Source: Planctomycetota bacterium (GTDB lineage Bacteria > Planctomycetota > PLA2 > JAEUHO01). Taken from it: 64,000 nucleotides of DNA. The notes under the pieces are model-generated. The model ran no database searches and was not told the DNA's origin. It saw nothing but the letters and a program-made list of their open reading frames with translations. How positions within the stretch are numbered: the first letter of the stretch is position 1; every line of letters starts with the position of its first letter. The DNA is taken from assembly GCA_046350655.1 (NCBI GenBank), contig JAXMAB010000004.1:1005225-1069224 (forward strand), in the 5' to 3' direction. The translations under genes were made by a program, and so were the position numbers. Of the stretch, positions 5,216 through 56,622 are shown one piece after another.

Positions 5216-5248
5216 GAGCCCTCGACCGCGCGGCGACGGACCGCGCGC

Positions 5249-20839: not shown

Positions 20840-21060
20840 CGCGGGGACCGCGTCCCCGGTCCCGGGACGCAAGGCCCGGCGGCCGGCGTGACCCGCCGAT
20901 CGACGGCCGGTTCCGCCATTCTGGGACCGGCACGAAATGGCGGAACCGACCCGCGGGACCGCGAGGCCCGGTCGCCGATCTCGCCCCCGTCGACGAACGG
21001 CATGGGCGGGGGGGGCGGCGCGGGCCACCGGGCCTCGCGGTCCTGGGAGGAACGCCGCGT
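20840..21060. repeat. composite intergenic repeat between the giant gene and its paralog: REP-like arms plus the unit CCGGTTCCGCCATTCTGGGACCGGCACGAAATGGCGGAACC
   Basis: GCGGCCTCGCGGGGACC, GGACCGCGAGGCCCGG and CCGGGCCTCGCGGTCC arms. The central hairpin has a 12-bp stem GGTTCCGCCATT/AATGGCGGAACC. Confidence 0.5.
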
Positions 21061-25534: not shown

Positions 25535-25800
25535 AGGACCGCGAGGCCCGGCCTGCCGGGCGACCAAACGCGCCAAACGGTGTCCGGCACCGGATGGCGG
25601 GATTGACCTCGATGGGCGGATACGAGCGGTTGCGGTCGCCGGCGGGGGACCGCGACGCCCGGCGGCCGTCGCGTCCCAACGCGCCAGATGGTGTCCGGCA
25701 CCCAATGGCGCGAATGGCGCCGGGGACGGCCTGCCGGGCGACCAAACGCGCCAAACGGTGTCCGGCACCGGATGGCGGGATTGCCCCCGGCCGGCGGGCC
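25535..25800. repeat. intergenic repeat cluster between prfB and purH: REP-like arms plus three variant hairpin units of the GACCGGCAC family (..CCAAACGCGCCAAACGGTGTCCGGCACCGGATGGCGGGATTG.. duplicated, ..CCAACGCGCCAGATGGTGTCCGGCACCCAATGGCGCGAATGGCGCC..)
   Basis: Direct duplication of a ~45-nt unit at 25573 and 25740. Conserved CCGGCAC core and ATGGCG(G) arm. Confidence 0.5.
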
Positions 25801-28178: not shown

Positions 28179-28234
28179 CCGACGCCCCGGACCCGCCGCG
28201 TGGCGGGCGTTCGCCCCGGGATCCGAGGCTCGCG

Positions 28235-28273
28235 GGGACGCGAGGCCCGCCGTGCGCCGGGCCTCGCGGTCCC
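28235..28273. repeat. REP-like palindrome GGGACGCGAGGCCCG ccgtgcg CCGGGCCTCGCGGTCCC downstream of dps
   Basis: Inverted arms seen directly, in the position of a 3-prime hairpin. Confidence 0.6.
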
Positions 28274-28671
28274 TCGCCGGGGGGGCCGCGATCGCGGGAT
28301 TCGGGAGTGCGGGAGCGGTGGGGGCGTCGTCGGCGGGGCGGTCCTCGTCGGGTTGCGGCGCTGCGGGGAAGGCCGCTCGCGCCCTCCTCTTCTTCCTCGC
28401 GCGAGCGCGGCCGCGGTCACGCGGATTTCCCCGCGTCGGTAGCCGGGGGTGCCCCCGGTCTCGCGACGATCCCGACGGTTTCCTTCGGTCGCCGGGGGGG
28501 GCGTGATAGCGTCGAGACCTTCCAGGTGCCCCTCGCGCGGCCCCGGGATCGCCCCGCTGCTACGGATCCGAGTGCTTCAGCTCGGGGGTGATCGGCCGGC
28601 CCCCGCGCGAGGTTCCCCTGGCTTGCGACCGGGTCGTAGGCCCCTCGCGCCACGTAACGGAACCCATTCGA

Positions 28672-30477
28672 ATGTTGAAGAGGCTGGCGGAATGCCAGCG
28701 GGTCATCGGGTACGCCTTCGCCGACCCGAATCTGCTCGAGATCGCGCTCACGCACTCGTCCGTCCGCACCCCGGACCGCGAGTGCAACGAGCGTCAGGAG
28801 TTCCTCGGGGACAGCGTCCTCGGGCTCGCGATCACCGAGGAGCTGTACAAGCGTCTTCCTGACCAACAGGAAGGCGAGCTCACCCGCATCAAGTCGGCGG
28901 TCGTCTCCCGCGGCGCGCTCTATCGCGTCTCGACGAAGCTGGGCCTCACCCGCTTCATCGAGGTGGCGAAGGGCGTCGCCCGACGCGAGGAGCTGCCCGT
29001 CTCGCTCACGGCGAACCTCGTCGAGAGCATCATCGGCGCCGTCTACCTGGACGGCGGCTTCTACCCGGCGCGCGAGTTCATCCTCCGCCACCTCGGTCCC
29101 GAGATCGAGGACGTCTTCAACGACCGGGTCCCGAAGAACTTCAAGAGCCTCCTCCAGCACGAGGCGCAGCAGCTCCTCGGCTGCACGCCCGTCTACCGGA
29201 GCGTCGAGGAGGAGGGGCCGGACCACCGCAAGGCGTTCACGGTCGCCGCGATCCTCAAGGGCACGGAGTACGGCCGCGCCACGGGGATCAACAAGAAGGA
29301 AGCCGAGCAGGAGGCCGCGCGTCACGCCCTCGAGGCGCTGAAGTACCGCGGTCGCCGGCGCCGCCGCCGCCTGCCCGAGCTCCGCGAGCGCGACCCGCGC
29401 GAGACCCGCGACACGCGGGACCGCGACGCCCGCGACGCCCGCGACCCGCGCGACCGCGATCGCGACCGCGTCCGCACCATCGTCAAGCAGAGCAGCGACG
29501 CCGACGACTGGCGCGAGTGGGCGGAGGCGGCCGCGAAGCCGGCCGGCCCGACGAACTACGCGATCGCGCCCGAGGCCGACGAGGGCTTCGTGGACGACGG
29601 CGGCGCTCCGCGGCCCGCCGCGCTCGCGCCCGAGTTCGACGCCGACGCGCCGCCCGCCGAGGCGACGCCGTCCGACGCGCCGGCCGAGACGTCCGCGCGT
29701 GACGAGGCCCCGCGCGAGGGCGACGCGCCCGCCGCCGGCCGCGAGCCGGCCGAGGGCGATGCGGAGGGCGACGGACGTCGTCGGCGTGGCCGCCGCGGCG
29801 GTCGTGGCCGCGGTCGCGGTCGTCGCGACGACGAGGGCGCGCCGCCCGCGCCGGGCATCGCCCCGGAAGCGGACGCGATGCCGCCCGAGGACGCCGCTCC
29901 GGCGGTGCCGCCGGAGGCCGACGCGTCCGGCGACGTGCCCGCGGCGTTCGTGGACGGGCCCGAGCCGTCCTCTTGGCCGGACGGCCCGAGCGAGCCCGTG
30001 CCGGCGCCGCGTGAGCGCCGCCCCCGTGGCGGACGTGGACGCGGTCGCCGTCCGGCCGCCGACGCGGCCCCGGCGGGCGACGAGGCCACGCCGGCTGCGG
30101 ATCCCTCCGCGCGCGGCGGCGACTTCGCGTTGAGCGACGCGCCGCCGTCCGAGGCTCCGGCACCGCCGCCGGCCCGACGGGGTGGCGGTCGTCGCGCGGC
30201 CGCGCCGAAGCCGGAAACGGCACCGGCGGCGGATCCCGCGCCGGTCGTGCGCGAACCCGCGCCCTCGATGCCGGCTCCGAAGCCGGCTCCCAAGCCGGCG
30301 CCCACAGGCCCCGCGTTCGGCGCGGGCGTGATCGGCAGCGAGACGCCGCCGCCGCCGGCGCCGAAGTCGTCGGTCGCGCCCGAGGTGAAGCCGACGGTCG
30401 AGGTCGAGGGCCGCCGCAAGGCGCCCGTGACGCCGAAGAAGCCGCCCGCCGACGGCGGGTTCGGTGTCGGGCTGTAG
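28672..30477 (+). CDS. rnc: ribonuclease III with a ~370-aa low-complexity C-terminal extension (RD repeats, RGG/RGR tract, Pro/Ala-rich)
   Basis: N-terminal 230 aa: ERQEFLGDSVLGLAITEELY (RNase III signature), a dsRBD (KSLLQHEAQQ...KKEAEQEAARHALEAL). Then RGRRRRRRLPELRERDPRETRDTRDRDARDARDPRDRDRDRVRT, GRRRRGRRGGRGRGRGRRDD, RGGRGRGRR and PAPKPAPKPAP. Confidence 0.8.
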   Translation: MLKRLAECQRVIGYAFADPNLLEIALTHSSVRTPDRECNERQEFLGDSVLGLAITEELYKRLPDQQEGELTRIKSAVVSRGALYRVSTKLGLTRFIEVAKGVARREELPVSLTANLVESIIGAVYLDGGFYPAREFILRHLGPEIEDVFNDRVPKNFKSLLQHEAQQLLGCTPVYRSVEEEGPDHRKAFTVAAILKGTEYGRATGINKKEAEQEAARHALEALKYRGRRRRRRLPELRERDPRETRDTRDRDARDARDPRDRDRDRVRTIVKQSSDADDWREWAEAAAKPAGPTNYAIAPEADEGFVDDGGAPRPAALAPEFDADAPPAEATPSDAPAETSARDEAPREGDAPAAGREPAEGDAEGDGRRRRGRRGGRGRGRGRRDDEGAPPAPGIAPEADAMPPEDAAPAVPPEADASGDVPAAFVDGPEPSSWPDGPSEPVPAPRERRPRGGRGRGRRPAADAAPAGDEATPAADPSARGGDFALSDAPPSEAPAPPPARRGGGRRAAAPKPETAPAADPAPVVREPAPSMPAPKPAPKPAPTGPAFGAGVIGSETPPPPAPKSSVAPEVKPTVEVEGRRKAPVTPKKPPADGGFGVGL

Positions 30478-30525: not shown

Positions 30526-30561
30526 GACACGCGAGGCCCGGTGCGAACCGGGCCTCGCGTC
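30526..30561. repeat. REP-like palindrome GACACGCGAGGCCCGG tgcgaa CCGGGCCTCGCGTC between convergent rnc and the 30560..33004 gene (overlaps the latter's stop codon)
   Basis: Inverted arms seen directly. Confidence 0.6.
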
Positions 30562-33004
30562 ATTTCGGGGCGTCCGCGGGCCAGACGATCTTCACGTCGC
30601 GGGTCTCGCCGTCGGTGATCGTGAAGGTCTGGAGCGCGGGCGAGGTCTCGGCCTCGTCGTCGTCGGTGCGCACGGCCCACGTCCCCGGCTCGACGGGGTG
30701 CTCGAAGCGGCCGTCGGGCCCCGACACCACGGCCTGCCACGGGTCGTCGTGGTCCACGTCGGGGTCGGTCTTCTCCTCCGCGGCCGCGTCGGCGCCGACG
30801 CGCCGCAGGTAGAAGAGCCGTTCGACGGCGGGCGTCCCGTCGGCGTCCACGACCTGCCCGCGCACGCGCCCGCGGCGCGTGACCACGAGTCGCAGCCCGC
30901 CCGCGGGCACTTCCGTGACGCGGATGAGAGCCCTGAGGAACTCCATGCCGCCCACCTGGAGGTCGAACGGCGGCGGCGGGAAGTCCTCGAGCAGGAATCG
31001 CCCGTGGACGTCGGACGTGTCGGAACCCCACAGGCAGTCGGCGGCATCGACCCTGGCCTCCGGAATCGGGGCGCCTCGGCGGTCCACCACCGTCCCCGGG
31101 ATCCGGCGCCCGCGCTCGAGGCGTACCGTCCCGAGATCGACGGTCTCCGCCCCGCGGACCGACGTCCTCCGCCAGGCCCACGCCCACCCATCGGCGTGGA
31201 CGAGCAGCGCGACCTCGCCGCGGTCGAGTCCGCGGAACTCGACGGACCCGTGCCGGAAGTGTCCCCTTTCGATGCTGTCCCCGTCCAACAACAACTCGGC
31301 GTGGACCGTGCCTTCGGGGACGGCGCCGTCCGTCGTGAGCACTTGGGCGAGTACGGACGCGCGGGGCGTAACGACGATGCGTACCGGCGGCGCACCCGCG
31401 AGGACCCGAAGCGGCTGGTCCAACGCACGGCCGCGGTCGGGCGTCCAGACGTCTAGCCACCGTGCCGTCGCGTCGAGTCCGGAGAATCGGAACCTGCCTT
31501 CCGGGTCGGTCCTCGCCTCGCGGACGCCCGGTCGGTCGCGGTCCCAGAAATGCGTCCACCAGCGCCGTTTGGGGATCGAGTCGTCGAAGTCCGACGCGGG
31601 CGCGGCGATGACGCTGGCGGCCGCGACCGCTTGGCCCCCTTCGTCCACGACCAGTCCTTCGATCATCCGCCCTGCGTCGAGCGAGACGGTGACCCGGGTC
31701 GTAGTGCCTGCCACGGGCACGATCCGACGGACGACCGATCGGAGTCCGTCACTTCCTACGAGAAGCCACGCCGGTTCGTCCGACAGGTTGTCGAAACTTG
31801 CGAGTGCTCCGCGCGTGGCGAACTTCGACCCGGCCTGCACCAACTGCGAGAATGCGCCGTCGCAGGGCCCGCCGGGGCCGACGACCTCGATCTCCAGACG
31901 CGCGGCCCGCTGCAGCCGAAGCTCGATGGGCCTCGCGGCGCTGGCGACGTCCACGCGCGTCACCGGGGAGGGGCCAAACCCGTCCTTCACAGCCCGTACC
32001 CACGCGGTCGAGCGGCCGGGGGGGAGCGGGTGCGAGAAGGACCCGTCGGCCGCGGTCCGGGTGGACTCGCTGTCGGGCGGCGAGTACGCGGCGACATCCC
32101 GTGCGAGGGCCACGTCCTCTTCCTGCGTCCGTGGTGACGCGTCGATCACGGATCGCAGGCGGGCGCCGGGTTCGCCGCCGGTGACGTAGACCCGTGCGTC
32201 CGCCGCGACATTCCCATCGGCGTCGCGCACGATCCCGGAGATCACCGTGCAGCGCTCGAGTGCGAGCTCCAACGGGGGTTCCACGACGTCGGGCGGTGCC
32301 GCACGGACCCGGAGGGTCCGCTCGAAGAATCCGACGTGGTCCGCGACGATCTCGGTGGCAACCCCGGGCTCGACTCCCGAGAGCCGGAAGCGACCGTCGG
32401 CGTCCGTCGGGCCGATCTCCACCTCGTTCACGAGGACGCTCGCGCCCGCCACCGGCGCGCCGGACGCAGCGTCGATCACGCGGCCGACGACCTCGCGTCC
32501 GGGGCGCATCTCGAGTCGGACGACGTTCGTGTCGCGCTCGAGCTCCGTGTTCCCGGCTCCGCACGGGCACAATCCCGCGGCCCAGGCCTCGACTTCGACG
32601 ACCCGGAGGTCGGTCGAGGGGAACTCGCACGCTCCCTGCGCGTCCGTCTCCTTCGTCGCGAGCACGTCGAGGCTGTTCCAGCGCCGGACGCGGACGGTGA
32701 CGCCGGCGCGGGGCACGTCGTTCACGGTCACGAACACACGCAGGGTCGTGGGGCGCGCGGCGGCGGCCGCGCCCGCGGGCCGGTCGGCGTCTCGGGTCGA
32801 GGTGCGTCGGCCGGCGGCGGCGAGTGCGGCGTCGGTCGGTTGCGTCCCGCCGGTGACGTGGCCCGGTGCCTTGGCGCCGGGCGCGGCGGCCGCGTCGTCC
32901 TGCGTCGGGGCGAACGGGCCCACACCGCGGGACCACGCGAGCGCCACCGCGCCGCCGATCACGAGCAGCAGGCCGGCCAGCGCACCGAGTCCGCGACGCG
33001 TCAC
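30560..33004 (-). CDS. membrane-anchored protein with repeated carboxypeptidase-regulatory-like / Cna-B-like beta-sandwich domains
   Basis: 814 aa. N-terminal TM segment LGALAGLLLVIGGAVALAW. At least 6 repeats of the pattern G.V.D..G.PV.GA.V......TDA.GRF.. (e.g. GRVIDAASGAPVAGASVLVNEVEIGPTDADGRFRLSGVEPG). Confidence 0.7.
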   Translation of the reverse strand: MTRRGLGALAGLLLVIGGAVALAWSRGVGPFAPTQDDAAAAPGAKAPGHVTGGTQPTDAALAAAGRRTSTRDADRPAGAAAAARPTTLRVFVTVNDVPRAGVTVRVRRWNSLDVLATKETDAQGACEFPSTDLRVVEVEAWAAGLCPCGAGNTELERDTNVVRLEMRPGREVVGRVIDAASGAPVAGASVLVNEVEIGPTDADGRFRLSGVEPGVATEIVADHVGFFERTLRVRAAPPDVVEPPLELALERCTVISGIVRDADGNVAADARVYVTGGEPGARLRSVIDASPRTQEEDVALARDVAAYSPPDSESTRTAADGSFSHPLPPGRSTAWVRAVKDGFGPSPVTRVDVASAARPIELRLQRAARLEIEVVGPGGPCDGAFSQLVQAGSKFATRGALASFDNLSDEPAWLLVGSDGLRSVVRRIVPVAGTTTRVTVSLDAGRMIEGLVVDEGGQAVAAASVIAAPASDFDDSIPKRRWWTHFWDRDRPGVREARTDPEGRFRFSGLDATARWLDVWTPDRGRALDQPLRVLAGAPPVRIVVTPRASVLAQVLTTDGAVPEGTVHAELLLDGDSIERGHFRHGSVEFRGLDRGEVALLVHADGWAWAWRRTSVRGAETVDLGTVRLERGRRIPGTVVDRRGAPIPEARVDAADCLWGSDTSDVHGRFLLEDFPPPPFDLQVGGMEFLRALIRVTEVPAGGLRLVVTRRGRVRGQVVDADGTPAVERLFYLRRVGADAAAEEKTDPDVDHDDPWQAVVSGPDGRFEHPVEPGTWAVRTDDDEAETSPALQTFTITDGETRDVKIVWPADAPK

Positions 33005-33050
33005 GACACCCTCCGCGAGCAGCGTACCCGGGCGCGGTCCGTCGTGCCGG

Positions 33051-33212
33051 TCAGTACGGCAACTTGTGCGAGCGCCCGGGCTTCAGGGCGTTCAGGCACC
33101 CGAAGCCGTTGTTCTCCCGGCGGAGGGCGCGCCAGACCACCCAGCCCATGAGCACCGGGAACGCGATCGCGATGCCCAGGCGAATCCATATCGCGACGCC
33201 GAGCGTGATCAT
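33051..33212 (-). CDS. possible small membrane protein (53 aa)
   Basis: MITLGVAIWIRLGIAIAFPVLMGWVVWRALRRENNGFGCLNALKPGRSHKLPY, one TM helix. Lies between two co-directional genes. Support is weak because it is only the tail of a longer spurious track ORF. Confidence 0.3.
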   Translation of the reverse strand: MITLGVAIWIRLGIAIAFPVLMGWVVWRALRRENNGFGCLNALKPGRSHKLPY

Positions 33213-33400
33213 GCGTCGCGCGCTCCGTGCCCGGGGCCGACCTCGCTCCGCCGACGTCGGACGGCCGCGATCCAGGTGAGGTTCGGGGTCGTCCGCTCCA
33301 TCCCGGCATTGTGCCACGCGACTCTCCGTCGGCGGCCGCCGGGCCTCGCGTCCCGGGGAGGGGGATGCGGACAGGACGGTGGGGCAAGGGTCGCGGGGCG

Positions 33401-35533
33401 TCAGCGAAGCGCGCTGCGTCGGAGAAGGCGCACCTCGATCGGCGACGCGGCCGACGGGTCCACCGTGCGCTCCATGTACCGGTCGTCGGTCTCGAAGACC
33501 AGCCGCACGGCCGTGCGTGGCACGTGTTCCATCGTGAAGCGACCGTCCGTGTCGGTGCGCGTCCAACGGAAGTCCTCGACCTCGGGGCACCGGACCGTCG
33601 CGCCCGCGATCGGATGCCCGGCCGGGTCGAGCGCGCGGCCGGTGATCGTCGCGCCGACGTCGAGCACGACGTCGTCGAGGTCCACCGCGGCGCCGCCGCG
33701 GACCGAGAACGTGCGCCGTACCCACGCCGCGTCCGACGGGCACACGACCCAGACGTAGTCGCCGTCGGACAGGCCGTCGTGGGAGAGGACGCCGTCGTCG
33801 GGTTCGCGCGTGCCACCCTTGCCGCCACCGTCGGTCGAGAGCATGACCTCGACGCGACGCGTGTAGGGGCGCCGTTCGGCGTCCAGGAGCCGCATTCGGA
33901 CGCGGCCCTCGGGCGCGAGGACGACCCGCAGGTCGCGCGCGGGCGCGGTGGCGGGTACGCGGAAGGCGCCCGCAGCGTGGCCACGTTCGTCTTTCCATTT
34001 GACGTGCAGGTGGATGGGGCCCGGCCACACGCCCGAAACGGAGAATCGCCCCGACCCGTCCGTGCGCGTTCGGATCGACGGCGCGCCGGGCAGGCCATCG
34101 ACGCTCCAACGGTCGATCACGACGGACGCGTCCGCGAGCGGCAAGCCGCCGACGTCCACGACCGTGCCCGCGACGGTCGCGCCCGTGGACAGCGGCAGGT
34201 CGAGCTCGATCGTCGCGCCCTCCTCGACGTCCACGAACGTCGCGGCCGGCAGGAAGCCCTCGGTCTCCGCGAACACGAGCACGCGCCCGGGCACGACGTC
34301 CACCAGGCGCACGCGGCCGTCCGCTTCGGCTCGCGCGGGTCGCCTGGGGAACGAGGGCGGCGACGTGGCCCAGGCAATCCGCACGTCGTGGGGCGAGTTG
34401 GCCCCGTCCGGCACGGTGCAGCGCACGAGCAACACGGCCGGCCGACGGATCCGCAACTCGACGTCCCGTCCCGGCGCCGCGTCGGTCGTCGGCAACACGT
34501 CGGCCACGTCCGCCGCCGCGGCGTGCCCGAACACGCTCGCAGAGACACCGTACGCCGCGCCGAGCTCGAGCCCGTCGAACACGAACCTGCCGTTGCGGTC
34601 GCTGATCTGGAAGGCCGGATTGCTGCGCGCGACCAGCCGCCGACCCCACAGGAACTGCGCGACGTCGGCCGGCACGGCGGCGGGCCACGCCTCCGCGGCG
34701 TCCTCGGCGAGCTCGGCGACGGTGCGCGCCCGCACCGTCACCTCGGGCATCGGGCGGCCGTCCGGGCCCAGGACGACCCCGCGGATCGTGCCCCCGCGCT
34801 CGAGGCGGACGACCGTCGGATCGCGCTCGGGCCGCCCGCCGTCGGCGCGGAGCTTCACGGCCGACGTGCGGAACCCCGCCGCGCTCACGACGAACGTCGT
34901 CTCGTCGTTGTCCGCGAGGCCCGGGAGGGCCATCGTGCCGGTCGCGTCGGTCGCGCCCACCGGAAGCGGGATGCCCCAGCCTTCGACGGCGACCCTCGCA
35001 CCCGCGATGCCCGCCTCGCCGTCGGCCGCGACGACCCGAAGGCTGGCGGCGACGCCCGCGAGGAGCGGGATCGGGACGGGCGCCCCGTCCTCCGGCGGGC
35101 CGTGCCCGAGCTGACCGAAGTAGACGCGGTACCCGGGCGCCACCGCGTGGAAGTACCGCTCGCCCCGGGGCACGCCGTCGACGGACGCAAGGCCCGCCGC
35201 GTCACTGGCCACGGGCGCGAGCCAGTCCACGCCGTTCGGGTCGTGGACCCAGATGCGGGCCCCGGCGATCGGCGTGCCGGCGGGGTCCGCGACGCGGAAC
35301 GTGAGCCACGGCGCCGCCTCGGCCGGCGCCGGACCCTGCGATGCTCGAGGTTTCGGGGCCTCGCCGCGCGGCGAGGCCGCGAGGTCGCGCGGCGCGGGCG
35401 TCTCGGTGGGTGCCGGTCCGGCCGCGGGACTGTCGGCCGCGGGACCGCCCTTCTGCCGCAGCCCGATCCACGCGACGACGGCCAGCAATCCGGCCGCGAG
35501 GCACGCGAGGCCCGCTGCATTCCGTCGGTTCAC
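33401..35533 (-). CDS. second membrane-anchored carboxypeptidase-regulatory-like repeat protein (710 aa, GTG start)
   Basis: C-terminal 710 aa of track ORF 33401..38737. GTG start with GGGAGGGAGG 5 nt upstream. TM segment AAGLACLAAGLLAVVAWIGL, then repeats GARIWVHDPNG..., GTIRGVVLGPDGRPMPEVTV, GATVAGTVVDVGGLPLADASV, ATITGRALDPAGHPIAGATV..TDTDGRF. The upstream 1,068 codons of the track ORF are antisense to mfd and were rejected. Confidence 0.7.
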   Translation of the reverse strand: MNRRNAAGLACLAAGLLAVVAWIGLRQKGGPAADSPAAGPAPTETPAPRDLAASPRGEAPKPRASQGPAPAEAAPWLTFRVADPAGTPIAGARIWVHDPNGVDWLAPVASDAAGLASVDGVPRGERYFHAVAPGYRVYFGQLGHGPPEDGAPVPIPLLAGVAASLRVVAADGEAGIAGARVAVEGWGIPLPVGATDATGTMALPGLADNDETTFVVSAAGFRTSAVKLRADGGRPERDPTVVRLERGGTIRGVVLGPDGRPMPEVTVRARTVAELAEDAAEAWPAAVPADVAQFLWGRRLVARSNPAFQISDRNGRFVFDGLELGAAYGVSASVFGHAAAADVADVLPTTDAAPGRDVELRIRRPAVLLVRCTVPDGANSPHDVRIAWATSPPSFPRRPARAEADGRVRLVDVVPGRVLVFAETEGFLPAATFVDVEEGATIELDLPLSTGATVAGTVVDVGGLPLADASVVIDRWSVDGLPGAPSIRTRTDGSGRFSVSGVWPGPIHLHVKWKDERGHAAGAFRVPATAPARDLRVVLAPEGRVRMRLLDAERRPYTRRVEVMLSTDGGGKGGTREPDDGVLSHDGLSDGDYVWVVCPSDAAWVRRTFSVRGGAAVDLDDVVLDVGATITGRALDPAGHPIAGATVRCPEVEDFRWTRTDTDGRFTMEHVPRTAVRLVFETDDRYMERTVDPSAASPIEVRLLRRSALR

Positions 35534-35614
35534 GACGTCCTCCCTCCCCAGCGTACCCGCCCGGCCGGAGCGGGTGGGGGCGCCCGCGCGCGCGCGGGTA
35601 CCATCGGCCCTTTC

Positions 35615-38600
35615 GTGACCGCCGACCGCTCGGCTGCGCCCTACCCTGACCCCGCCCACGTGGCGGCCCCCGTCGCGGGCCTCCTCGCCCGGAAGAAGTC
35701 CGTCCGCGTGGGGGGCGTCCACGGCGGCGCCGTCGGCCTCCTCGTCGCGGGCCTGCGCGCGCACGCGCCCGCGATCCTCGTCGTCACGAGCGACGCGCGC
35801 GCGGCCGACGCCGCCGTCCTCGACGTCGCGACCTTCGCCCACGACGACGCGCTGTCGTTCCCGACGTGGCCCCACGGCGCCGGCCAGGGGCCGCCGGACC
35901 CCGACGTCCTCTCCGCGCGCGTCGCGGTGCTCGATGCCGCCCGCGCGGCACGCGAGGCCCGGTCCGCGCCGGCGAGCGGGCCTCGCGTCCCGGGAGAGGG
36001 GCCGCCGTCCCCGCGCGCCGGGTCGCGGGCGTCGGCCGCGGCGGCGCCGGGCCCGCTCGCGCCCGTGTTCGTCGCGCCCGTGGGGGCGCTCGTGCAGGAC
36101 GTGCCGTCGCCCGTCGTCGTCGAGCGGGCCGGCCTCGTGCTCGCGCTCGGCGAGACGCACGCGCCGGGGTCGCTCCTCGAGCACCTCGCGTTGTCGGGGT
36201 ACGTGCGCGTCGGCGCCGTCGAGACGCCCGGCGAGTTCGCGGGCCGCGGCGGCGTGGTCGACGTCTTCCCGTACGGCGCGAAGGCGCCCGTGCGCCTCGA
36301 CTTCTTCGGCGACGTGCTCGAGTCGGTGCGCGTGCTCGACCCCGCGACGAACCGCGTCGGGGCGGGCCTCGCGTCGGTGCGGTTGCTCTGCCTGCCCCCC
36401 GAGCGCGTGCGCGACCCCGCGGCCGACTCGGGGCCGTGCACGATCCTCGAGCACCTGCCGCCGGACGCGCTCGTGGTGCTCGTCGAGCCGTCGGTCGTCG
36501 CGGGGCGGCTGGCGGTGGGCAAGGGCGTGGCGATCGTGGGCGACCGCGTGCGGTGGAAGCGGCTCGACGGGGGCCTCGCGGCCGCGCGGCGCCTCGACCT
36601 CGCCGCGCTGCGGCTCGGCCCCGACGGCGATCTCGACCTCGAGGTGGGCACGCTGGAGGAGGTGCGCGGGATCGCGGAGCGGGCGGAGCGCGCGAGCGCC
36701 GCGCGCAAGGGCCCGACGCGCGCCGACCCGCAGGCCCTCGTCGCGGAGGCGCTGCGGCGGCTGACGACGCGCGCGGACCGCATCGTCGTGTTCCGGCGCG
36801 CGCCGGGCGAGGAGGAGCGGCTCAAGGAGCTGATGCCCGACGCGCCGCTCGTGTTCGCGGAGGGGTCGCTCTCGGCGTCGTTCCTCCTGGCGAAGGAGCG
36901 CGTCGCGTTCCTCGCGTACGACGACCTCGCCGACCTCTCCCTGCGCGAGCGGCGGCCCCGCGGCATCGCCGGGGCCTCGCGGCCGCTGCAGGACTTCCTC
37001 GAGCTCGAGGTCGGCGAGCCCGTCGTGCACCTGCACCACGGCATCGGCGTGTTCCGCGGGCTCGCGCCGCTCGACGGCGGCGCGCAGGCGATGAAGCTCG
37101 AGTTCGCGGAGGGCACGACGCTGTTCGTGCCCGTCGCGCGCATCGACCTCGTGCAGCGGTACGTCGGCACGGGGCGGCGCCCGCGGCTCTCGAAGGTCGG
37201 CGGGTCGGAGTGGGCGGCGAAGAAGGCGAAGGTCGAGGACGCGGTGCTCGAGTTCGCCGAGGGGCTGCTCGAGGTGCAGGCCCAGCGCACGCGGCGCGCG
37301 GGCCCGCCGATGAAGCCGCACCCGCACTGGCAGGACGAGTTCGAGCGCTCGTTCCCCTGGAAGGACACGCCGGACCAGGCGGCGACGACGCTCGCGCTGC
37401 GGGCCGACCTCGCGGGCCCGCGGCCCATGGACCGCCTGCTGTGCGGCGACGTCGGCTACGGCAAGACCGAGCTCGCCCTGCGCGCCGCGTTCCTCGTCGC
37501 GACGGCGGGGCGGCAGGTGGCCGTGCTCGTGCCGACCACCGTGCTGTGCGAGCAGCACCGCCGCACGTTCGAGGCGCGGCTCGCGTCGTACCCCGTCGTG
37601 GTGCGCGCGCTGTCGCGGTTCCGCACGCCGGCCGAGCAGCGCGAGATCGTCGCGGGCCTCGCGGACGGCTCCGTGGACGTCGTCGTCGGCACGCACCGCC
37701 TGCTGTCGAAGGACGTGAAGTTCAAGGACCTCGCCATGGTCGTCGTGGACGAGGAGCAGCGGTTCGGCGTCGAGCACAAGGAGAAGCTGAAGGCGCTCAA
37801 GGCCGACGTGGACGTGCTCACGCTGACCGCGACGCCGATCCCGCGCACGCTGCACATGGCCCTGCTCGGCATCAAGGACATCAGCAACCTCACGACGCCG
37901 CCGCCGGGCCGCCGGCCCATCGAGACGAAGCTCGCGCGCTTCGACGAGGCGCTCATCCGCGAGGCGATCGTGCGCGAGCTCGACCGCGGCGGGCAGGTCT
38001 ACTACCTCCACAACCGCGTCTACGACCTGCCGGTGGTCGTCGGCCGCGTCCTGCGGCTCGTGCCCGACGCGCGCGTCACCTCCATCCACGGCCAGATGGA
38101 CCGCGACCTCGTCGAGGAGCGCATGCTCCAGTTCGTCCGGGGCGACGTGGACGTGCTCGTGTCCACGACCATCGTCGAGTCGGGCCTCGACATCCCCAAC
38201 GCCAACACGATGGTCATCGAGGACGCCGAGCGGTACGGCCTCGCCGAGCTGCACCAGCTGCGCGGCCGCGTCGGGCGCGAGCAGCGCCACGCCCACTGCC
38301 TCCTCCTCGTCGACAAGGACCGCTCGCTGTCGGAGGAGGCCGCGCGCCGCCTCACCGCGCTCGAGGAGTACAGCGAGCTCGGCGCGGGCTTCCGCATCGC
38401 CATGCGCGACCTCGAGCTCCGCGGCGCCGGCAACCTCCTCGGCGCGCAGCAGTCGGGCCACATCGCCGCGGTCGGGTACGAGCTCTACTGCAAGATGCTC
38501 GCCGACGCCGTCCACCGCGTCCGCAAGGACCCGCCGCGGACCGGCGACCCCGCCACGGTGGACGTGGACGTCCCGTGCGGCCTGCCGCCGGCCTACGTCG

Positions 38601-39106
38601 CGGACGCGCGCGAGACGTTCCGCCTCTTCCGCCGCGTCTCGACCGCGCCCACCGCCGAGGTGCTCGCCGACCTCCGCGACGAGCTCGTCGCGCGGTTCGG
38701 CCCGCTGCCCCCCGACACGCAGCGGCTGTTCCTCCACCAGGGCGTGCGCCTCGCGGCGGGGGCGCTCGGGATCGGCCGCGTCGGCGCCGCCGAGGCCGGC
38801 GGGCTCGTCGTCGAGGCGCGGCCGGGCACCGACGCCATCGACCGGCTCGCGGCGCGCGGGGTCCGCATCCGTCGCCTCGCGACGCCCGGGACCGCCTACG
38901 TCCCGCCGCCCGAGGGGCCGCCGGGCCGCACGCTCGTGGCGCTCCTCGAGGCCTCGCTCGTCGCGTTGCTCGCGCGCCTGGGGCCGGATCGGCCGGGGCC
39001 GGGCCCCGGGACCCCGGGCGGTCCCGGCGGGGGACCGCGAGGCCCGGCGGCGGGCGGGGACGGCGCGTCGCGCGGGGCTCCCTCGCGGGTATCTTCGCGA
39101 CGATGA
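35615..39106 (+). CDS. mfd: transcription-repair coupling factor Mfd
   Basis: About 1,163 aa from GTG 35615 within track ORF 33227..39106. N-terminal UvrB-homology region, DEAD/DEAH motor (CGDVGYGKTE.., VVDEEQRFGV, LTLTATPIPRTL, HQLRGRVGR) and TRCF C-terminal domain. Start codon uncertain (no ATG nearby). Confidence 0.85.
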   Translation: MTADRSAAPYPDPAHVAAPVAGLLARKKSVRVGGVHGGAVGLLVAGLRAHAPAILVVTSDARAADAAVLDVATFAHDDALSFPTWPHGAGQGPPDPDVLSARVAVLDAARAAREARSAPASGPRVPGEGPPSPRAGSRASAAAAPGPLAPVFVAPVGALVQDVPSPVVVERAGLVLALGETHAPGSLLEHLALSGYVRVGAVETPGEFAGRGGVVDVFPYGAKAPVRLDFFGDVLESVRVLDPATNRVGAGLASVRLLCLPPERVRDPAADSGPCTILEHLPPDALVVLVEPSVVAGRLAVGKGVAIVGDRVRWKRLDGGLAAARRLDLAALRLGPDGDLDLEVGTLEEVRGIAERAERASAARKGPTRADPQALVAEALRRLTTRADRIVVFRRAPGEEERLKELMPDAPLVFAEGSLSASFLLAKERVAFLAYDDLADLSLRERRPRGIAGASRPLQDFLELEVGEPVVHLHHGIGVFRGLAPLDGGAQAMKLEFAEGTTLFVPVARIDLVQRYVGTGRRPRLSKVGGSEWAAKKAKVEDAVLEFAEGLLEVQAQRTRRAGPPMKPHPHWQDEFERSFPWKDTPDQAATTLALRADLAGPRPMDRLLCGDVGYGKTELALRAAFLVATAGRQVAVLVPTTVLCEQHRRTFEARLASYPVVVRALSRFRTPAEQREIVAGLADGSVDVVVGTHRLLSKDVKFKDLAMVVVDEEQRFGVEHKEKLKALKADVDVLTLTATPIPRTLHMALLGIKDISNLTTPPPGRRPIETKLARFDEALIREAIVRELDRGGQVYYLHNRVYDLPVVVGRVLRLVPDARVTSIHGQMDRDLVEERMLQFVRGDVDVLVSTTIVESGLDIPNANTMVIEDAERYGLAELHQLRGRVGREQRHAHCLLLVDKDRSLSEEAARRLTALEEYSELGAGFRIAMRDLELRGAGNLLGAQQSGHIAAVGYELYCKMLADAVHRVRKDPPRTGDPATVDVDVPCGLPPAYVADARETFRLFRRVSTAPTAEVLADLRDELVARFGPLPPDTQRLFLHQGVRLAAGALGIGRVGAAEAGGLVVEARPGTDAIDRLAARGVRIRRLATPGTAYVPPPEGPPGRTLVALLEASLVALLARLGPDRPGPGPGTPGGPGGGPRGPAAGGDGASRGAPSRVSSRR
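35949..35995. repeat. REP-like palindrome (CACGCGAGGCCCGG tccgcgccggcgag CGGGCCTCGCGTCCCGGG) lying inside the mfd reading frame
   Basis: Encodes ..REARSAPASGPRVPGEG.. within a ~30-aa insertion relative to E. coli Mfd, between the conserved segments corresponding to ..LSTLYQL and PTMQRGVLIVPV... Confidence 0.55.
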
Positions 39107-40287: not shown

Positions 40288-40315
40288 GCGGGCCCGGGGC
40301 GAGCTCGGGCCCGGC

Positions 40316-40356
40316 GGGGACGCGAGGCCCGGCGGCCGACCGGGCCTCGCGTCCCC
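40316..40356. repeat. REP-like palindrome GGGGACGCGAGGCCCGG cggccga CCGGGCCTCGCGTCCCC immediately after the SurA-like gene, preceded by a second hairpin GGGCCCG gggcgagct CGGGCCC (40291-40313)
   Basis: Inverted arms seen directly. Confidence 0.6.
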
Positions 40357-40381
40357 GGGGAGCCCGACCGCGCCCCCGACC

Positions 40382-43221: not shown

Positions 43222-43255
43222 GCGTCCTCCCGCAACGAACGTCCTGAGTCTCTCC

Positions 43256-43294
43256 GCGCGCCCGCCGGCACCCGCCGGCGGGCGCGCGCATTTC
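43256..43294 (+). terminator. intrinsic terminator after the 41611..43221 gene
   Basis: 13-bp perfect stem GCGCGCCCGCCGG cacccg CCGGCGGGCGCGC followed by cATTTCT. Confidence 0.55.
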
Positions 43295-46626: not shown

Positions 46627-46768
46627 GGAGGTCCTGTGGGGAGCGCTGGGGGAGGCCCGGCGCGAACGACGCAGGGTAGTCCGGCCGCCCCCCGGGGACA
46701 ACCTCCGCGGGGGGTGGCCGGAGCGCCGGTGGCCCCTCCCTCCCACCCCCGGCTACAATCGCCCGGCG

Positions 46769-48520: not shown

Positions 48521-48538
48521 CGCCCGGTCGTGCGCCCC

Positions 48539-48593
48539 GGGACGCGAGGCCCGGTCGCCGTCCCTCCGGACGGCGCGCGGGCCTCGCGGTCCC
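48539..48593. repeat. REP-like palindrome GGGACGCGAGGCCCGG ..(nested GCCGTCCctcCGGACGGC hairpin).. CGGGCCTCGCGGTCCC after the CDGSH gene
   Basis: Inverted arms with a nested inner hairpin in the loop. Confidence 0.6.
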
Positions 48594-48761: not shown

Positions 48762-49856
48762 ATGGCCGACGTCCCCCCGACCCGTCCGGGCGCGTGCCCG
48801 TCGTCGGAGACGCTCGACGCGTTCGTCGCGGGGTCGCTCGACGCCGGCGCGCGGGACGGCGTCGCGCGCCACCTCGCGACGTGTTTCATGTGCCGCGCCG
48901 TCGCGGTGGGGCTCGCGAAGGCGGCCGGGAAGTCGCCGGACGCCGCGGGGATCCCCGCGCGTGACGGCGGCGCGTCGTCGCGGCCCGCGGCGACGTCGGC
49001 GCCTGCACCGTCGGGGAACGGGCCGTCGGGCGGCGCGCCGTCGGGCAACGCGCCGGCGTCGCGGCCTTCGCCGACCGGAGCCCCGTCGCCGACCGGCGGC
49101 GACGCAGGCAACCGTCGCGGGCCGGGCCTCGCGGTCCCGAAAGTCGTCGGGGTCGTGGTCCTGGTCGTCGTGGCGATCGGGCTGTACCTGGCGTTGAAGT
49201 CGTGCGGCGGCGGTGGGGGTGCGTCGGCGGGGAAGGACGGCGAGGCCGTGCTGGCGGCGGTGGCGGGCGACCTCGCGGCGAAGTCGCCGGACCTGTTCGC
49301 GGGGTTCGCGCCGGTGCCGCGCGGCGAGCGCGTGGCGGCGCAGGCGATGGTGCGCGACGGCGAGATCGAGGTGCACGGGCCGACGGAGGTGGTGCTCGGC
49401 GGGCGGCCGCGGTTCGCGTGGGTGCAGAGCGGGCGCGTGCGGAACTACGACCTCGTGCTGAAGGGCGCGGACGGGAAGACGGCGTGGAAGAAGCGCATCG
49501 AGGGCTTCGCGGCGCCATTCCCGGCGGACGAGGCGCCGCTGCCGGCGGGGTCGGCGTGGACGTGGGAGGTGTCGGGCAAGCGTTCGACGGGGACGGTGCG
49601 GGGCGTGCGGACGTTCCGCGTGGCGACGGACGACGAGCGCAAGCGGTACGAGGCGGCGGTGGCGGTGGTGCGCGCGCGGCCGGCGTCGGACCGGCCGAAC
49701 CTGGTGGTGGCGCACCTGGCGCTGCGGGCGGGGCTGCTCGAGGAGGCGGAGGCCGCGGCGGCGGCCGACGTGCGGGCGTTCCCGGGCGACGACGCGGGCC
49801 GGACAACGCTTGCGTGCGTCCGCGCGCGGCTGGGGATCGTGCCCGACGGGCCGTGA
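48762..49856 (+). CDS. putative zinc-finger anti-sigma factor-like membrane protein (no adjacent ECF sigma gene)
   Basis: 364 aa from M31 of track ORF 48672..49856. H-x3-C-x2-C motif (HLATCFMCR) near the N-terminus, a Pro/Ser/Gly-rich linker, TM segment VVGVVVLVVVAIGLYLAL, and a C-terminal extracytoplasmic domain. Confidence 0.5.
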   Translation: MADVPPTRPGACPSSETLDAFVAGSLDAGARDGVARHLATCFMCRAVAVGLAKAAGKSPDAAGIPARDGGASSRPAATSAPAPSGNGPSGGAPSGNAPASRPSPTGAPSPTGGDAGNRRGPGLAVPKVVGVVVLVVVAIGLYLALKSCGGGGGASAGKDGEAVLAAVAGDLAAKSPDLFAGFAPVPRGERVAAQAMVRDGEIEVHGPTEVVLGGRPRFAWVQSGRVRNYDLVLKGADGKTAWKKRIEGFAAPFPADEAPLPAGSAWTWEVSGKRSTGTVRGVRTFRVATDDERKRYEAAVAVVRARPASDRPNLVVAHLALRAGLLEEAEAAAAADVRAFPGDDAGRTTLACVRARLGIVPDGP

Positions 49857-50076
49857 CGCGGTCGGGCGCGTGGTCCGGTCGCGGGTGGGGGGGACGCGAG
49901 GCCCGTGCGGGGGGCGGCCGCGCGGTGGGGCCGCCGGGCCGGTGCGGGCGGGCTTCGTCGGCGGTGCGAGCCCTGCTGGGGGGGCGGTCGCGGCCGGGCC
50001 TCCCCCCCTAGAATGGGGCGTGGCGGGCGGGGTGTGCTACCCCTTCTCCCTCCGATCGGGTGTCCGCGGCCCGAGT

Positions 50077-50152
50077 GGGCAGGTAGCTCAGCTGGTAGAG
50101 CGTCGGACTGAAAATCCGAAGGTCACCGGTTCAATCCCGGTCCTGCCCACCA
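50077..50152 (+). tRNA. tRNA-Phe (anticodon GAA)
   Basis: GGGCAGGTAGCTCAGCTGGTAGAGCGTCGGACTGAAAATCCGAAGGTCACCGGTTCAATCCCGGTCCTGCCCACCA: 7-bp acceptor stem, anticodon loop cT-GAA-aa, T-arm GGTTCAATCC, encoded CCA. Confidence 0.9.
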
Positions 50153-50293
50153 CTCTCTCCTCGTCGGCGTTTCGTCGGCCTCTCCTCGTCGGCCGCCCCG
50201 CGACCCCGTCCCGCGCGTGCCGCCCCCCGAACGCCCCCCGGGCGGTCCTCCGCGTGCGCCGGTAGACTGCCGCCGTCTTCGGAGGAACGGGCG

Positions 50294-50491
50294 ATGTCCG
50301 CGACACGCAAGTCGGTTTGGATCCTCTCGGCGCTCGCGTTCATCGGTGGCTGTTGGGCGATCGACATGGCCGATAGTCTCAAGCGCGGGCACGAGGTCTA
50401 CGCGATCGCGCTCATCGCGGACAGCATCTTCGTCTCTTCATGCGTCTGCACGGCCGCCGTGCTCGCCTCGCGTCCCGACCGCCAGGCGTAG
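50294..50491 (+). CDS. small membrane protein (65 aa)
   Basis: GGAGGA SD 8 nt upstream of the ATG. MSATRKSVWILSALAFIGGCWAI... No recognised family. Confidence 0.4.
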   Translation: MSATRKSVWILSALAFIGGCWAIDMADSLKRGHEVYAIALIADSIFVSSCVCTAAVLASRPDRQA

Positions 50492-50541
50492 CCGAGCGCG
50501 CGTCGCCGCTTCCCCGTCGCGATGCGACGGCAGGCTCGGCA

Positions 50542-51483
50542 TCAGTTCGTCCGAACGGACGCGGCGACGCGGAACCCGACGTACTCGCGGGTCTCCCCCT
50601 CGCCCTGCACCCCGATGCGGAACGCGGCGCGGAGCATGTAGGCGTTCTCGCCGCCATAGGCGCCGCCGCGCCGGAGGTGAGAGCCGCTCGGCGGGGGCCC
50701 GAGCGGGTCGATCGCGGGACCCGGCGGGTAGTCCCGATCGTCGTACCCGTCCGAGCACCACTCGCTCGCGTTGCCGTGCACCTCGTGCAGGCCGAAGGGG
50801 TTCGCGGGCAGCGAGCCCACGGGGACCGTCGTGCCGCGGGCCTCGCGCTTGTGGTCCTCGTCGTACGGCGTGACGTTCCCGTCGTAGTTCGCCATGTCCG
50901 ACGAGAGCCAGTTGCCCCACCAGAAGGCGGTGGACGTGCCGGCGCGGCAGGCCCGCTCCCACTCCGCCTCCGTCGGGAGCCGGTACGTCAGGCGCCGGTC
51001 CCCGTGGCCGGGTTCCTGGGCGTTCAGCCAGCCGACGTAGTCGAGCGCGTCCTGGAACGACACCTGCACGACCGGTTGGTCGTCGCCGTCGAGGGAGCCC
51101 TTGGCCGTGCCCGTGCTCCGGTGCCCGGGCCGGAACCGTCGGAACTGCGCGTTCGTGACCTCGGTCGTCTGGAGGTAGTACGCGCGCGTCAACCGGACCT
51201 CGTGCTGCGTCTCGGTCGCCTCCTCGTGGCCGGGTTCGTCGGGCGGCGATCCCATCAGGAACGTCCCCGACGGGACAAGGACGAAGCGCATCCCCTGCGG
51301 GTTCTCGAACGCGACGGGGACGCCGAGCCGTCGCGCCTCGGCGCGTTGCACGTCGGCGACGTGGGCCCAAGCCGGGACGGCGTCCGACGCGGGGCCCGGG
51401 GCTGGGCCTCCGTCCGGTCCGCCGCAGCCCGCGAGGAGCAGGCCGGTCAGGGAGAGGACGACGCGTCGATACATCCCGCGCAC
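50542..51483 (-). CDS. formylglycine-generating-enzyme (SUMF1/FGE-sulfatase) family lipoprotein
   Basis: 313 aa. Lipobox LLLAGC. FLMGSP, VTNAQFRRF, EAEWERACRAG, GLHEVHGNASEWCSD, GFRVA are FGE-domain hallmarks. Confidence 0.8.
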   Translation of the reverse strand: MRGMYRRVVLSLTGLLLAGCGGPDGGPAPGPASDAVPAWAHVADVQRAEARRLGVPVAFENPQGMRFVLVPSGTFLMGSPPDEPGHEEATETQHEVRLTRAYYLQTTEVTNAQFRRFRPGHRSTGTAKGSLDGDDQPVVQVSFQDALDYVGWLNAQEPGHGDRRLTYRLPTEAEWERACRAGTSTAFWWGNWLSSDMANYDGNVTPYDEDHKREARGTTVPVGSLPANPFGLHEVHGNASEWCSDGYDDRDYPPGPAIDPLGPPPSGSHLRRGGAYGGENAYMLRAAFRIGVQGEGETREYVGFRVAASVRTN

Positions 51484-51849
51484 TCTATCGGGGCGCGGGG
51501 CCGATCGCTCCGGAGTCCGTCCGGAAGGTCGAGCGGCGGACCACCGCCCGATCCCCGGGACGATCGCACGGTCGCGCTCCGCGCGAGACTCCCGGGTCGC
51601 GTTGCTGCCCGATGCCGAGGCGAGCCCGGTCGGGGTCGGTCAGGCGCGTCGCTTCCGGCGCCCGCGCAGCCGGCGCCAGAGCGACCGCAGTCCGTGGATC
51701 AGGACGGGCAGGCCCCACGACGACGGTCGCGTCGTCATGTCGCGGACGTCGGGACGGTCGTCGTCGGACGGCCGCCGCGCGGAGTGGGAACGTCGAGGCC
51801 GGTTAGCCACGGCGCCCTCGCGCCGCGGGCGGGAAGGACCTGCCGCGTG

Positions 51850-52113
51850 TCACTTCGCCTCCGCGCGTTGGCGCGGCCAGAAGCCGGAAACGGCGCAGGT
51901 GATCCCGGCAGCGAGCAACAGCGCCGTCCCGCGCGAACGGTCCGGCGTGTTCGGCGCGACGTCTCGACGGGCGCCCGCGGGTCCGACGTCGAAGCTCCCG
52001 AAGTGGATCGCGGCCAACTCGTCGTCGACGCTCCCTTCGATGGGTTCGGGTCGGCGCCACGGCGGCATTCCGAGCCAGCCACCCGTCAGGCTCGAGATCG
52101 CGTAGACCGCCAT
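51850..52113 (-). CDS. hypothetical protein (87 aa; the start could extend to 52329)
   Basis: Good GC3 bias in this frame. No family recognised. Confidence 0.3.
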   Translation of the reverse strand: MAVYAISSLTGGWLGMPPWRRPEPIEGSVDDELAAIHFGSFDVGPAGARRDVAPNTPDRSRGTALLLAAGITCAVSGFWPRQRAEAK

Positions 52114-52258
52114 CGTGGCCCCCAGGACGACCCACACGGTCCGCACGGCTCGACCCACCCGAGTAGCGTAACAACGATCCCGTGCGCGAGCGCCGCCACC
52201 CGGCTCGGGTTGCGCGGTCCGGAGGGGGGCGCGACGCCGTCGCGCTGCGCCGGCGCGC

Positions 52259-52870: not shown

Positions 52871-52945
52871 GCGTCGACGCGCGGCGAGGGCCGCCCCCGC
52901 CGGCGGCCGGGCCTCGCGTACCCGCGAGCCCGAGTGGGGACCGGG

Positions 52946-54328
<1,383 letters not shown>

Positions 54329-56553: not shown

Positions 56554-56622
56554 TCGGGCCGCGCGACGGGGGACGTGTGCGGAGCGGGCCCGGGCCGACG
56601 TGCGCCCGGGCCCGCGAAGGCG

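Follow-up and report, generated by a model that had tools for sequence, protein, structure and literature searches.

A 64-kb stretch of an uncultured Planctomycetota genome (GenBank assembly GCA_046350655.1, contig JAXMAB010000004.1, positions 1,005,225 to 1,069,224), hereafter the window, is 70-78% G+C along its whole length and carries mfd, the gene for the transcription-repair coupling factor. Within the 5′ part of this gene lies a short inverted repeat that is translated in the mfd frame. A preliminary description, made from the letters alone, had taken it for a palindrome resembling the repetitive extragenic palindromic (REP) sequences of other bacteria, and its two arms do belong to a palindromic, mostly intergenic repeat family of this genome. 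We consider it likely that the hairpin is a REP-like repeat dimer that became fixed in mfd as a near-neutral in-frame insertion.

The element occupies positions 35949-35995, reads cACGCGAGGCCCGgtccgcgccggcgagCGGGCCTCGCGTcccggga and is translated as ..AAREARSAPASGPRVPGEGPPSPRAG.., just as first described. Its arms, ACGCGAGGCCCG and CGGGCCTCGCGT (the latter at 35977-35988), are perfectly complementary over 12 bp and enclose a 15-nt loop (Table 1). Both arms recur in the window. Together with three flanking bases, the left arm (GGCACGCGAGGCCCG, 35947-35961) is identical at 15/15 positions to copies at 621-635 and 54380-54394, while the right arm with its outer flank (CGGGCCTCGCGTCCCGGG) matches an intergenic copy at 33340-33357 at 18/18 positions; furthermore, the 25 nt at 35970-35994 share 24 positions with 48536-48560. 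Taken bare, the hairpin exceeds chance only marginally. A perfect 12-bp inverted repeat is by itself not rare at 74% GC: after dinucleotide shuffling, a window still has 0-7 perfect 12-mer inverted pairs (loops of 3-40 nt), and the real window contains 10 such loci. The predicted folding energy of 81 nt at the hairpin is -51.5 kcal/mol, compared with -46.2 +/- 3.2 kcal/mol in dinucleotide shuffles (z = -1.66). Five of the 10 perfect-hairpin loci consist of the dominant repeat word of the window, and it is because both arms in mfd are exact copies of this word that the hairpin belongs to the family beyond chance.

The 12-mer arm word, allowing at most one mismatch, is present in 52 copies in 64 kb, where 4.99 +/- 2.19 are expected; none of 100 shuffles reaches this number, their maximum being 12. 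If a giant tandem-repeat gene is set aside, it is by far the commonest 10-, 11-, 12- and 14-mer of the window (top k-mer, k = 10-14). The underlying unit is a non-palindromic 16-17-mer, (C)GGG(G/A)(A/C)CGCGAGGCCCG(G), that has no internal stem, and a position matrix built from 80 copies confines the conservation to about 14 nt, G-N-(A/C)-CGCGAGGCCCG. Two variants are apparent on reading the copies, namely type A (GGGGACGCGAGGCCCG) and type C (GGGACCGCGAGGCCCG). In order to compare coding and non-coding DNA, the window was divided by a gene map based on the periodicity of G+C at third codon positions (GC3) into 55.1 kb of coding and 8.9 kb of non-coding sequence. The exact 11-mer core occurs 45 times, i.e. 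about once per 1.4 kb, with 27 copies in non-coding (3.0 per kb) and 18 in coding sequence (0.33 per kb), a 9-fold higher density in the former; of 17 flanked 16-mers, 16 lie in non-coding sequence. Most of the coding copies are bare cores without the family flank, and 7 of the 18 are plain Gly-Leu-Ala codons (GGC CTC GCG) within (A/P)-G-L-A. The coding copies that do have a GGG-type 5′ flank are the right arm of the mfd hairpin (35977), a unit in the tail of mfd (39036) and one in the giant gene (16789).

Nine inverted pairs of units are found, at approximately 5180, 7052, 20960, 28239, 30530, 31899 (imperfect), 35951 (the mfd hairpin), 40321 and 48543. All of them are arranged head-to-head, as A+A, C+C or A+C, with loops of 8-58 nt that have no common sequence, and most sit directly past gene ends or between convergent genes; no T-run follows the pairs in the copies inspected. 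In addition, at least seven perfect singletons lack a recognisable partner, and singletons lie on both strands. The pair at 31899/31927, inside a CarboxypepD_reg gene, was considered as a second intragenic hairpin and rejected, as one mismatch per arm leaves two unpaired stem positions. Direct reading of the unit reveals no stop codon in any of its six frames; those of one strand encode GDARP, GTRGP and GREAR, those of the opposite strand PGLAS, RASRP and GPRVP. Only two of 151 fetched loci, the contigs L081 and L082, contain the exact 12-mer, and the core is dense in them as well; the exact 11-mer core is absent from the more distant contigs L003 and L001, which contain one-mismatch matches only. 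Judged by this distribution, the family is lineage-specific.

The open reading frame (ORF) that contains the hairpin has the domains of an Mfd protein, all of them above their Pfam cut-offs: UvrB_inter (residues 174-256), CarD_TRCF_RID (463-516), DEAD (604-746), Helicase_C (784-887) and TRCF (984-1060). They represent the UvrB-homology module D1a-D2-D1b, the RNA polymerase-interaction domain, the superfamily 2 translocase motor and the C-terminal TRCF/D7 domain, and the solved structures matched are those of the E. coli and mycobacterial Mfd proteins (2eyq, 6x26, 6aca). The TGA stop and the ATG of the following gene overlap (ATGA at 39103-39106). Relatives have a collinear N-terminus, and the reading frame is backed by GC3 periodicity. 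Homology begins about 110 codons upstream of the hairpin and includes the conserved segments VRVGGVHGGA.. and FPTWPH..GQGPPDPDVLSARVAVL. Because these ~110 residues are conserved with relatives and can be aligned, albeit weakly, to residues 19-95 of E. coli Mfd, the hairpin is internal to the gene, and the concern that the true start might lie downstream of the element can be set aside. Earlier referred to as an essential gene, mfd is non-essential in model bacteria.

The closest public Mfd genes come from uncultured Planctomycetota and Planctomycetia metagenome-assembled genomes (71-75% identity). L081 and L082 are sister-level metagenome contigs from independent assemblies, with 89% amino acid and 85-86% DNA identity to the window; L003 (74% identical), L001 (71%) and P0001-P0003 (50-62%) served as outgroups, and these as well as E. 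coli Mfd lack the hairpin-bearing segment. A search for homologous proteins with the N-terminal region of Mfd returned 3-4 distant, insertion-free fragments and no close relatives, its candidates being probably saturated by low-complexity words. Over the interval that corresponds to 35954-36058, the window has 35 codons, L081 and L082 have 25, L003 has 9, L001 and P0001-P0003 have similarly few, and E. coli has 3-6. The palindrome had been placed in a low-complexity insertion of Mfd between two conserved segments, and this is borne out: the segment that bears the hairpin exceeds that of the nearest outgroups (71-74% identical) by 26 aa and that of E. coli Mfd by about 35 aa. Over 35851-36120, the periodicity of GC by codon position breaks down, as expected for sequence outside ordinary coding constraint.

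Both sister contigs have the hairpin at the same codons as the window, in Mfd ORFs that are otherwise intact. A single mismatch in their left arm disrupts the innermost pair and is uncompensated, and their right arm is identical to that of the window and is followed by the consensus CCCC flank. Since two sister contigs carry it at the same codons, the hairpin is inherited and tolerated and is not an assembly artefact. Relatives with no exact copy of the repeat word in their flanking DNA are also without the insertion, and L081 and L082 have both, so that the lineage specificity asked about in the preliminary description is supported; a converse pattern, in which orthologues without the repeat share the insertion, is not what these relatives display. 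By parsimony, about 16 codons (48 nt) would have been gained before the window organism and L081/L082 diverged, and a further 10 codons later in the lineage of the window. The shared extra length (16 aa = 48 nt) fits one head-to-head dimer (43-47 nt).

In a HMMER alignment to solved Mfd structures, residues 31-105 of the window protein correspond to E. coli 19-95 and residues 144/147-257 to E. coli 99/102-212. The extra residues therefore take the place of the short turn that leads from the SSRLSTLYQL helix of D1a to its VLIVPV strand (E. coli 95 to ~99-102), upstream of the UvrA-binding D2 (UvrB_inter, residues 174-256). A position at the UvrB beta-hairpin was also considered and rejected, as the insertion lies one helix downstream of it by the HMMER register and the UvrB sequence. 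An AlphaFold2 model of modest confidence, obtained from a shallow alignment of 4 sequences (mean predicted local distance difference test score, pLDDT, 59.9), has a helix at 95-116 that takes in the REAR of the left arm, coil at 117-149 and a strand at 150-154, with pLDDT below 50 at 120-123 and 127-144. The insert encodes a loop rich in Pro, Gly, Ala, Arg and Ser that is probably disordered, and the surface loop that had been anticipated would, according to the alignment and this model, be the low-confidence coil between helix and strand of D1a.

A full-length alignment of Mfd with L003 reveals only three indels of at least 3 aa: besides the insertion with the hairpin, the C-terminal tail has gained 15+3 aa, and there is a single gap of 3 aa. 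Within the tail insertion lies one type-C unit (Table 1), which is found at the same place in L081 and L082 and is absent from L003, L002 and L001. The strongest argument for an insertional origin is that both of the two large lineage-specific insertions of Mfd hold flanked units, and that 55 kb of coding DNA contain no further copy of the flanked 16-mer. The three units of mfd are read in three different frames (REAR, GPRVP and GPRGP), which argues that no particular peptide has been selected for. Two other candidates in mfd were discarded. A core with one mismatch at 36971 is coincidental, being made of conserved GIAGASRPL codons without an indel. A local duplication of the upstream GQGPPDP (34 nt, 74%) as the source of the insert is rejected, since GEGPP has its homologue in the AKGPT of the sister contigs and many GC-rich repeats are as similar by chance.

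Table 1. Features of the mfd element and copies of the repeat family in the window.
Feature	Position	Strand	Description
mfd (transcription-repair coupling factor) coding sequence	35615-39106	+	1163 codons; GTG start at 35615
Hairpin, left arm	35950-35961	+	core of the repeat unit, ACGCGAGGCCCG; translated R-E-A-R
Hairpin, loop	35962-35976	+	15 nt, gtccgcgccggcgag; not in the other family copies; 5/15 positions differ in the sister contigs
Hairpin, right arm with outer flank (full repeat unit)	35977-35994	-	minus strand CCCGGGACGCGAGGCCCG; translated G-P-R-V-P-G
Variable insertion-bearing segment, Mfd domain D1a	35954-36058	+	35 codons (EARSAPASGPRVPGEGPPSPRAGSRASAAAAPGPL), between conserved VLDA.R..R and APV.VAP
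Second in-frame copy, single type-C unit	39031-39046	+	GGGACCGCGAGGCCCG; in the Gly/Pro-rich C-terminal Mfd tail (..GGGPRGPAAGG..), read G-P-R-G-P
Family copy, intergenic head-to-head dimer	5175-5216	.	17-bp perfect stem, 8-nt loop; between convergent genes
Family copy, intergenic type A + type C dimer	28234-28273	.	8-nt loop; directly past a Dps/ferritin-like gene
Family copy, dimer	30529-30560	.	8-nt loop; between convergent genes; position kept in L081/L082
Family copy, A+A dimer	40315-40357	.	18-bp stem; past the PPIase-like (peptidyl-prolyl isomerase) gene downstream of mfd; degenerate copy with another loop at the L081/L082 position
Family copy, dimer	48539-48593	.	24-nt loop with a nested hairpin; past ribF

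The account that we favour runs as follows. In the common ancestor shared with the organism of L081 and L082, one head-to-head pair (~43-48 nt) would have joined mfd at the helix-to-strand surface loop of the UvrB-like D1a, its length being divisible by three. The insert would have been read through because the unit is stop-free in all six frames, and would now be transcribed and translated as a disordered linker. The loop would later have drifted in sequence and length, to the extent of 10 additional codons in the window relative to the sister contigs, and a single unit would likewise have entered the unstructured C-terminal tail. Since the unit has no stop in six frames, survival inside a gene requires just a length divisible by three and a tolerant site; GC-rich units of this kind may be regarded as pre-adapted for survival within genes.

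Several points weigh against this account. We infer that the event was the insertion of a repeat copy, by transposition-like spread or by recombination, and that it was selectively near-neutral for Mfd function, where the neutrality is assumed. [quoted passage not shown] A Pfam scan of 30 ORFs, which covers the 64-kb window of a multi-Mb genome and not every small ORF, detected no transposase, whether RAYT (REP-associated tyrosine transposase), Y1_Tnp or other. Neither a target-site duplication nor a clean empty site that would mark the ends of the element was recognised, and the boundaries of the insertion are ambiguous in the low-complexity stretch, gap placement varying between aligners. 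The AlphaFold2 model, as stated above, is of modest confidence only. Furthermore, the copies have only the 16-17-nt unit in common, their loops being unrelated, and several perfect singletons show no trace of a partner; because of these three features, a maintained short motif fits better than decaying hairpin transposons of the REPIN type (REP doublets forming hairpins). Finally, L003 has a 10/11 match to the core (CGGGCCCCGCG) at 3338-3348, in AAGPAP codons that are equivalent to PGPLAP of the window, immediately downstream of the insertion. With 7 such matches in 9.2 kb, finding one beside the site by chance has a probability of about 3%. It may reflect target preference, homology-guided conversion or coincidence, and the element may in part have originated in situ. 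Its counterpart in the window, at 36045-36060, is 88% complementary over 16 nt to the region of the right arm and can pair with it.

Some of these points are accommodated if the 16-nt unit is instead a recognised signal, kept dense through a bias in uptake, through gene conversion or through the binding of a protein, as with the DNA uptake sequences (DUS) of Neisseria, and not the relic of a mobile element. Inverted pairs would then occur where hairpins are tolerated or useful, at the 3′ ends of genes, and the mfd copies would have arisen or been fixed in an unconstrained loop by the same drive. The conserved core is indeed short and non-palindromic, with unconserved flanks and loops, and perfect singletons on both strands accompany inverted pairs downstream of genes. 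In addition, its spacing of about one exact copy per 1.4 kb is akin to the densities of DUS and of the uptake signal sequences (USS) of Pasteurellaceae, two copies fall within one DNA-repair gene, and the outgroup L003 has its 10/11 match already in place beside the site. DUS, for their part, are known for terminator-like inverted pairs and for a bias towards genome-maintenance genes (PMC2397512, PMC2346458). However, both mfd copies come with added length and not as substitutions in existing codons, which is how intragenic uptake sequences usually originate; the association with repair is that of a single gene; the 9-fold intergenic enrichment is equally expected of REPs; and neither competence nor a receptor for the 16-mer motif is known in this lineage. 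We regard a signal as an unlikely source of the mfd copies, though it is the foremost of the alternatives. Its bolder form would make GGG(G/A)(A/C)CGCGAGGCCCG a functional signal in the genome of this uncultured Planctomycetota, one that serves uptake or recombination as DUS do or is bound by a dedicated DNA- or RNA-binding protein, with the two mfd copies owed to the drive that enriches genome-maintenance genes in Neisseria and not to transposon debris; this seems to us less likely still.

A hairpin kept as a working RNA or DNA structure, i.e. a pause, attenuation, RNase or roadblock site that tunes mfd expression, is more doubtful again. It is among the two most stable local structures of the gene: the 45 nt centred on it have a folding energy of -35.9 kcal/mol, the lowest of any 45-nt structure in mfd when so centred, and on a 5-nt sliding grid its -33.3 kcal/mol (start 35948) nearly ties with -33.4 kcal/mol in the C-terminal tail (start 38988), the gene mean being -17.8 +/- 4.7 kcal/mol. 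The tail, at 38980-39106, is the other most strongly folding part of mfd. Moreover, the arms are identical at 23 of 24 positions in the sister contigs, compared with a loop that differs at 5 of 15. Against a DNA background of 85-86% identity, however, 23/24 is not significant (binomial ~P = 0.1), and we do not take it as selection on the stem. The sole arm change breaks a pair and there is no covariation; no U-tract follows the stem; the fold is unexceptional for its base composition; a scan at Rfam gathering thresholds found tRNA only in the window and no family that matches the hairpin; and the outgroup relatives lack the hairpin altogether. The regulatory RNA hairpin that had been suggested as one possible role thus finds no support so far. 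Least probable, and already disfavoured, is a chance palindrome in a GC-rich low-complexity loop grown by slippage, with a coincidental resemblance to the family: although shuffled windows yield ~2 perfect 12-bp inverted repeats each, common codons for Gly-Leu-Ala, REAR and RASR can produce the bare 11-mer as well, and one head-to-head pair has a rough expectation of ~0.06 if the frequency of the motif in coding DNA is taken as given, neither arm departs from the word, the right arm follows the family through its flank, and the position of the pair is exactly that of one large lineage-specific insertion out of only two, the other of which also has a flanked unit that is otherwise missing from the coding sequence.

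Besides mfd, the window contains ordinary chromosomal housekeeping genes, among them typA/bipA, purH, dps, def, ribF, dut and those for pyruvate kinase, a peptide-chain release factor, RNase III and a class II aminoacyl-tRNA synthetase, as well as genes for sigma-54 activators. A second intergenic repeat family is found beside the main unit at 780-890, 7125-7320, 20905-20950 and 25560-25790, with motifs like GGGACCGGCACCnnATGGCGGAACC and GGCGATCCGCCAATnAACGACCGGCACGTAnTGGCGG (CCGCCAAT / ATTGGCGG when inverted); in long intergenic regions, the two form mosaics like bacterial interspersed mosaic elements. The intergenic region between the release-factor gene and purH has a perfect 57-nt direct repeat (25549-25605 and 25727-25783) with a weaker third copy in between, and on either side stands a copy of the main unit, the two being inverted (25539, +; 25795, -). 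tRNA-Phe (GAA) is encoded at 50077-50152 (+) in a weak-coding region (49741-50670) and is flanked by units at 49123 and 49890.

The giant ORF at 7685-20629 (-), with 4314 codons, consists in part of ~21 tandem 306-nt (102-aa) repeats at 9820-16141 and two more at 16901-17510; its flanked unit at 16789 (gggtACGCGAGGCCCGgtggc) is in frame. The RNase III ORF at 28591-30477 (+) has 628 codons, its Pfam domains end at residue 250, and ~380 codons follow; codon periodicity is weak over 29611-30450, and near-copies of the repeat core lie in the part beyond the domains at 29398, 29422 and 29431. This tail may be an extension that derives from repeats, or the ORF may be mis-extended. A stretch of ~4.9 kb that separates the RNase III gene from mfd in the window (30686-35551) is absent from a sister contig (L082, 3100-3230); the segment holds two minus-strand CarboxypepD_reg genes, and L082 keeps a ~130-nt remnant of the 3′ end of the first. 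We rejected the possibility that this indel is bounded by repeat units, as junctions and units do not coincide. Very stable GC-rich hairpins that do not come from the repeat unit (-32 to -42 kcal/mol per 45 nt) are located at 46681-46725, 43255-43290, 61611-61655 and 56584-56615, mostly at gene ends, and may be unrelated terminator-like structures. Finally, ~1.6 kb at 51351-52946 have no convincing codon periodicity and lie outside the transposase scan.

The phenomenon as such has been described in other bacteria, so the novelty of the mfd element is modest, and it does not by itself open a long-standing question. It does provide a clean and phylogenetically bracketed case, in a poorly studied phylum, of a genome's own intergenic palindromic repeat turned into protein sequence. 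In-frame repeats of this kind make proteins longer and give rise to low-complexity loops, which pipelines for annotation and alignment may misread. The earlier statement that such elements are unusual outside Rickettsia was too strong. Intragenic REPs are found in several phyla, including the Planctomycetes-Verrucomicrobia-Chlamydiae (PVC) bacterium Opitutus terrae, and also in Thauera, Thioalkalivibrio and R. conorii; more than half of the inserts consist of dimers or groups that encode 20-30 aa, a conspicuous share is located in uvrA/B/C/D, recBCD, polA and dnaE2, and the insertions have been argued to occupy linkers or loops (Di Nocera, De Gregorio, Rocco 2013, PMC3733652). The main text of that study and five of its supplementary files were searched for mfd without a match. 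In-frame MITEs have been reviewed together with the Rickettsia palindromic elements (RPEs) (PMC10969869).

Among the known systems, DUS and USS share with the present family a short conserved core, unconserved flanks, about one copy per kb and inverted pairs downstream of genes. DUS are defined by uptake assays, whereas the likeness here is distributional only, and the intragenic copies here come with insertions and not substitutions. The mfd element resembles RPEs in being a palindromic repeat that is read in frame within a functional protein gene, at a place where the fold allows it; however, RPEs are ~100-150 bp long with a conserved peptide in a preferred frame, in contrast to ~45 nt and three frames, and both organisms and sequences are unrelated. 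The REPINs mobilised by RAYT (Bertels & Rainey 2011, PMC3116915) have over-represented ~16-mer seeds, spaced inverted hairpin doublets and singlets, and are lineage-specific and vertically inherited. Within the 64-kb window, the copy number and extragenic bias agree with those of REPs and REPINs, as does the occurrence of head-to-head hairpin doublets beside singlets. REPIN spacers, in contrast, have a characteristic length (PMC3116915), whereas the loops here vary and are unrelated; singlets here are often perfect and not decayed, and the 30 ORFs scanned include no RAYT gene. The GTAG/CGTC REPs are similar in their high copy number, mostly intergenic location, singletons and head-to-head dimers, and in having some copies within ORFs that are read in frame, where dimers encode ~20-30 aa. 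They differ in that each of their units folds by itself into a stem-loop of 20-40 nt (stem 5-13 bp), one end of which bears GTAG or CGTC as an unpaired tag, while here the dimer alone forms a hairpin, so that the structure that defines this class is lacking; no GTAG tag is present in the listed copies and flanks, and CGTC occurs only within the paired stem of dimers. Their hosts, too, differ from the uncultured high-GC Planctomycetota lineage studied here. REP-like is thus an apt description, while strict membership of the RAYT-mobilised GTAG/CGTC classes is not established. Taken together, these comparisons of sequence suggest that the mfd element is a dispersed palindromic repeat co-opted in frame into a gene, of a kind already known, and that the family from which it comes, a non-palindromic 16-mer that forms head-to-head hairpins and has no GTAG tag, appears to be previously undescribed.

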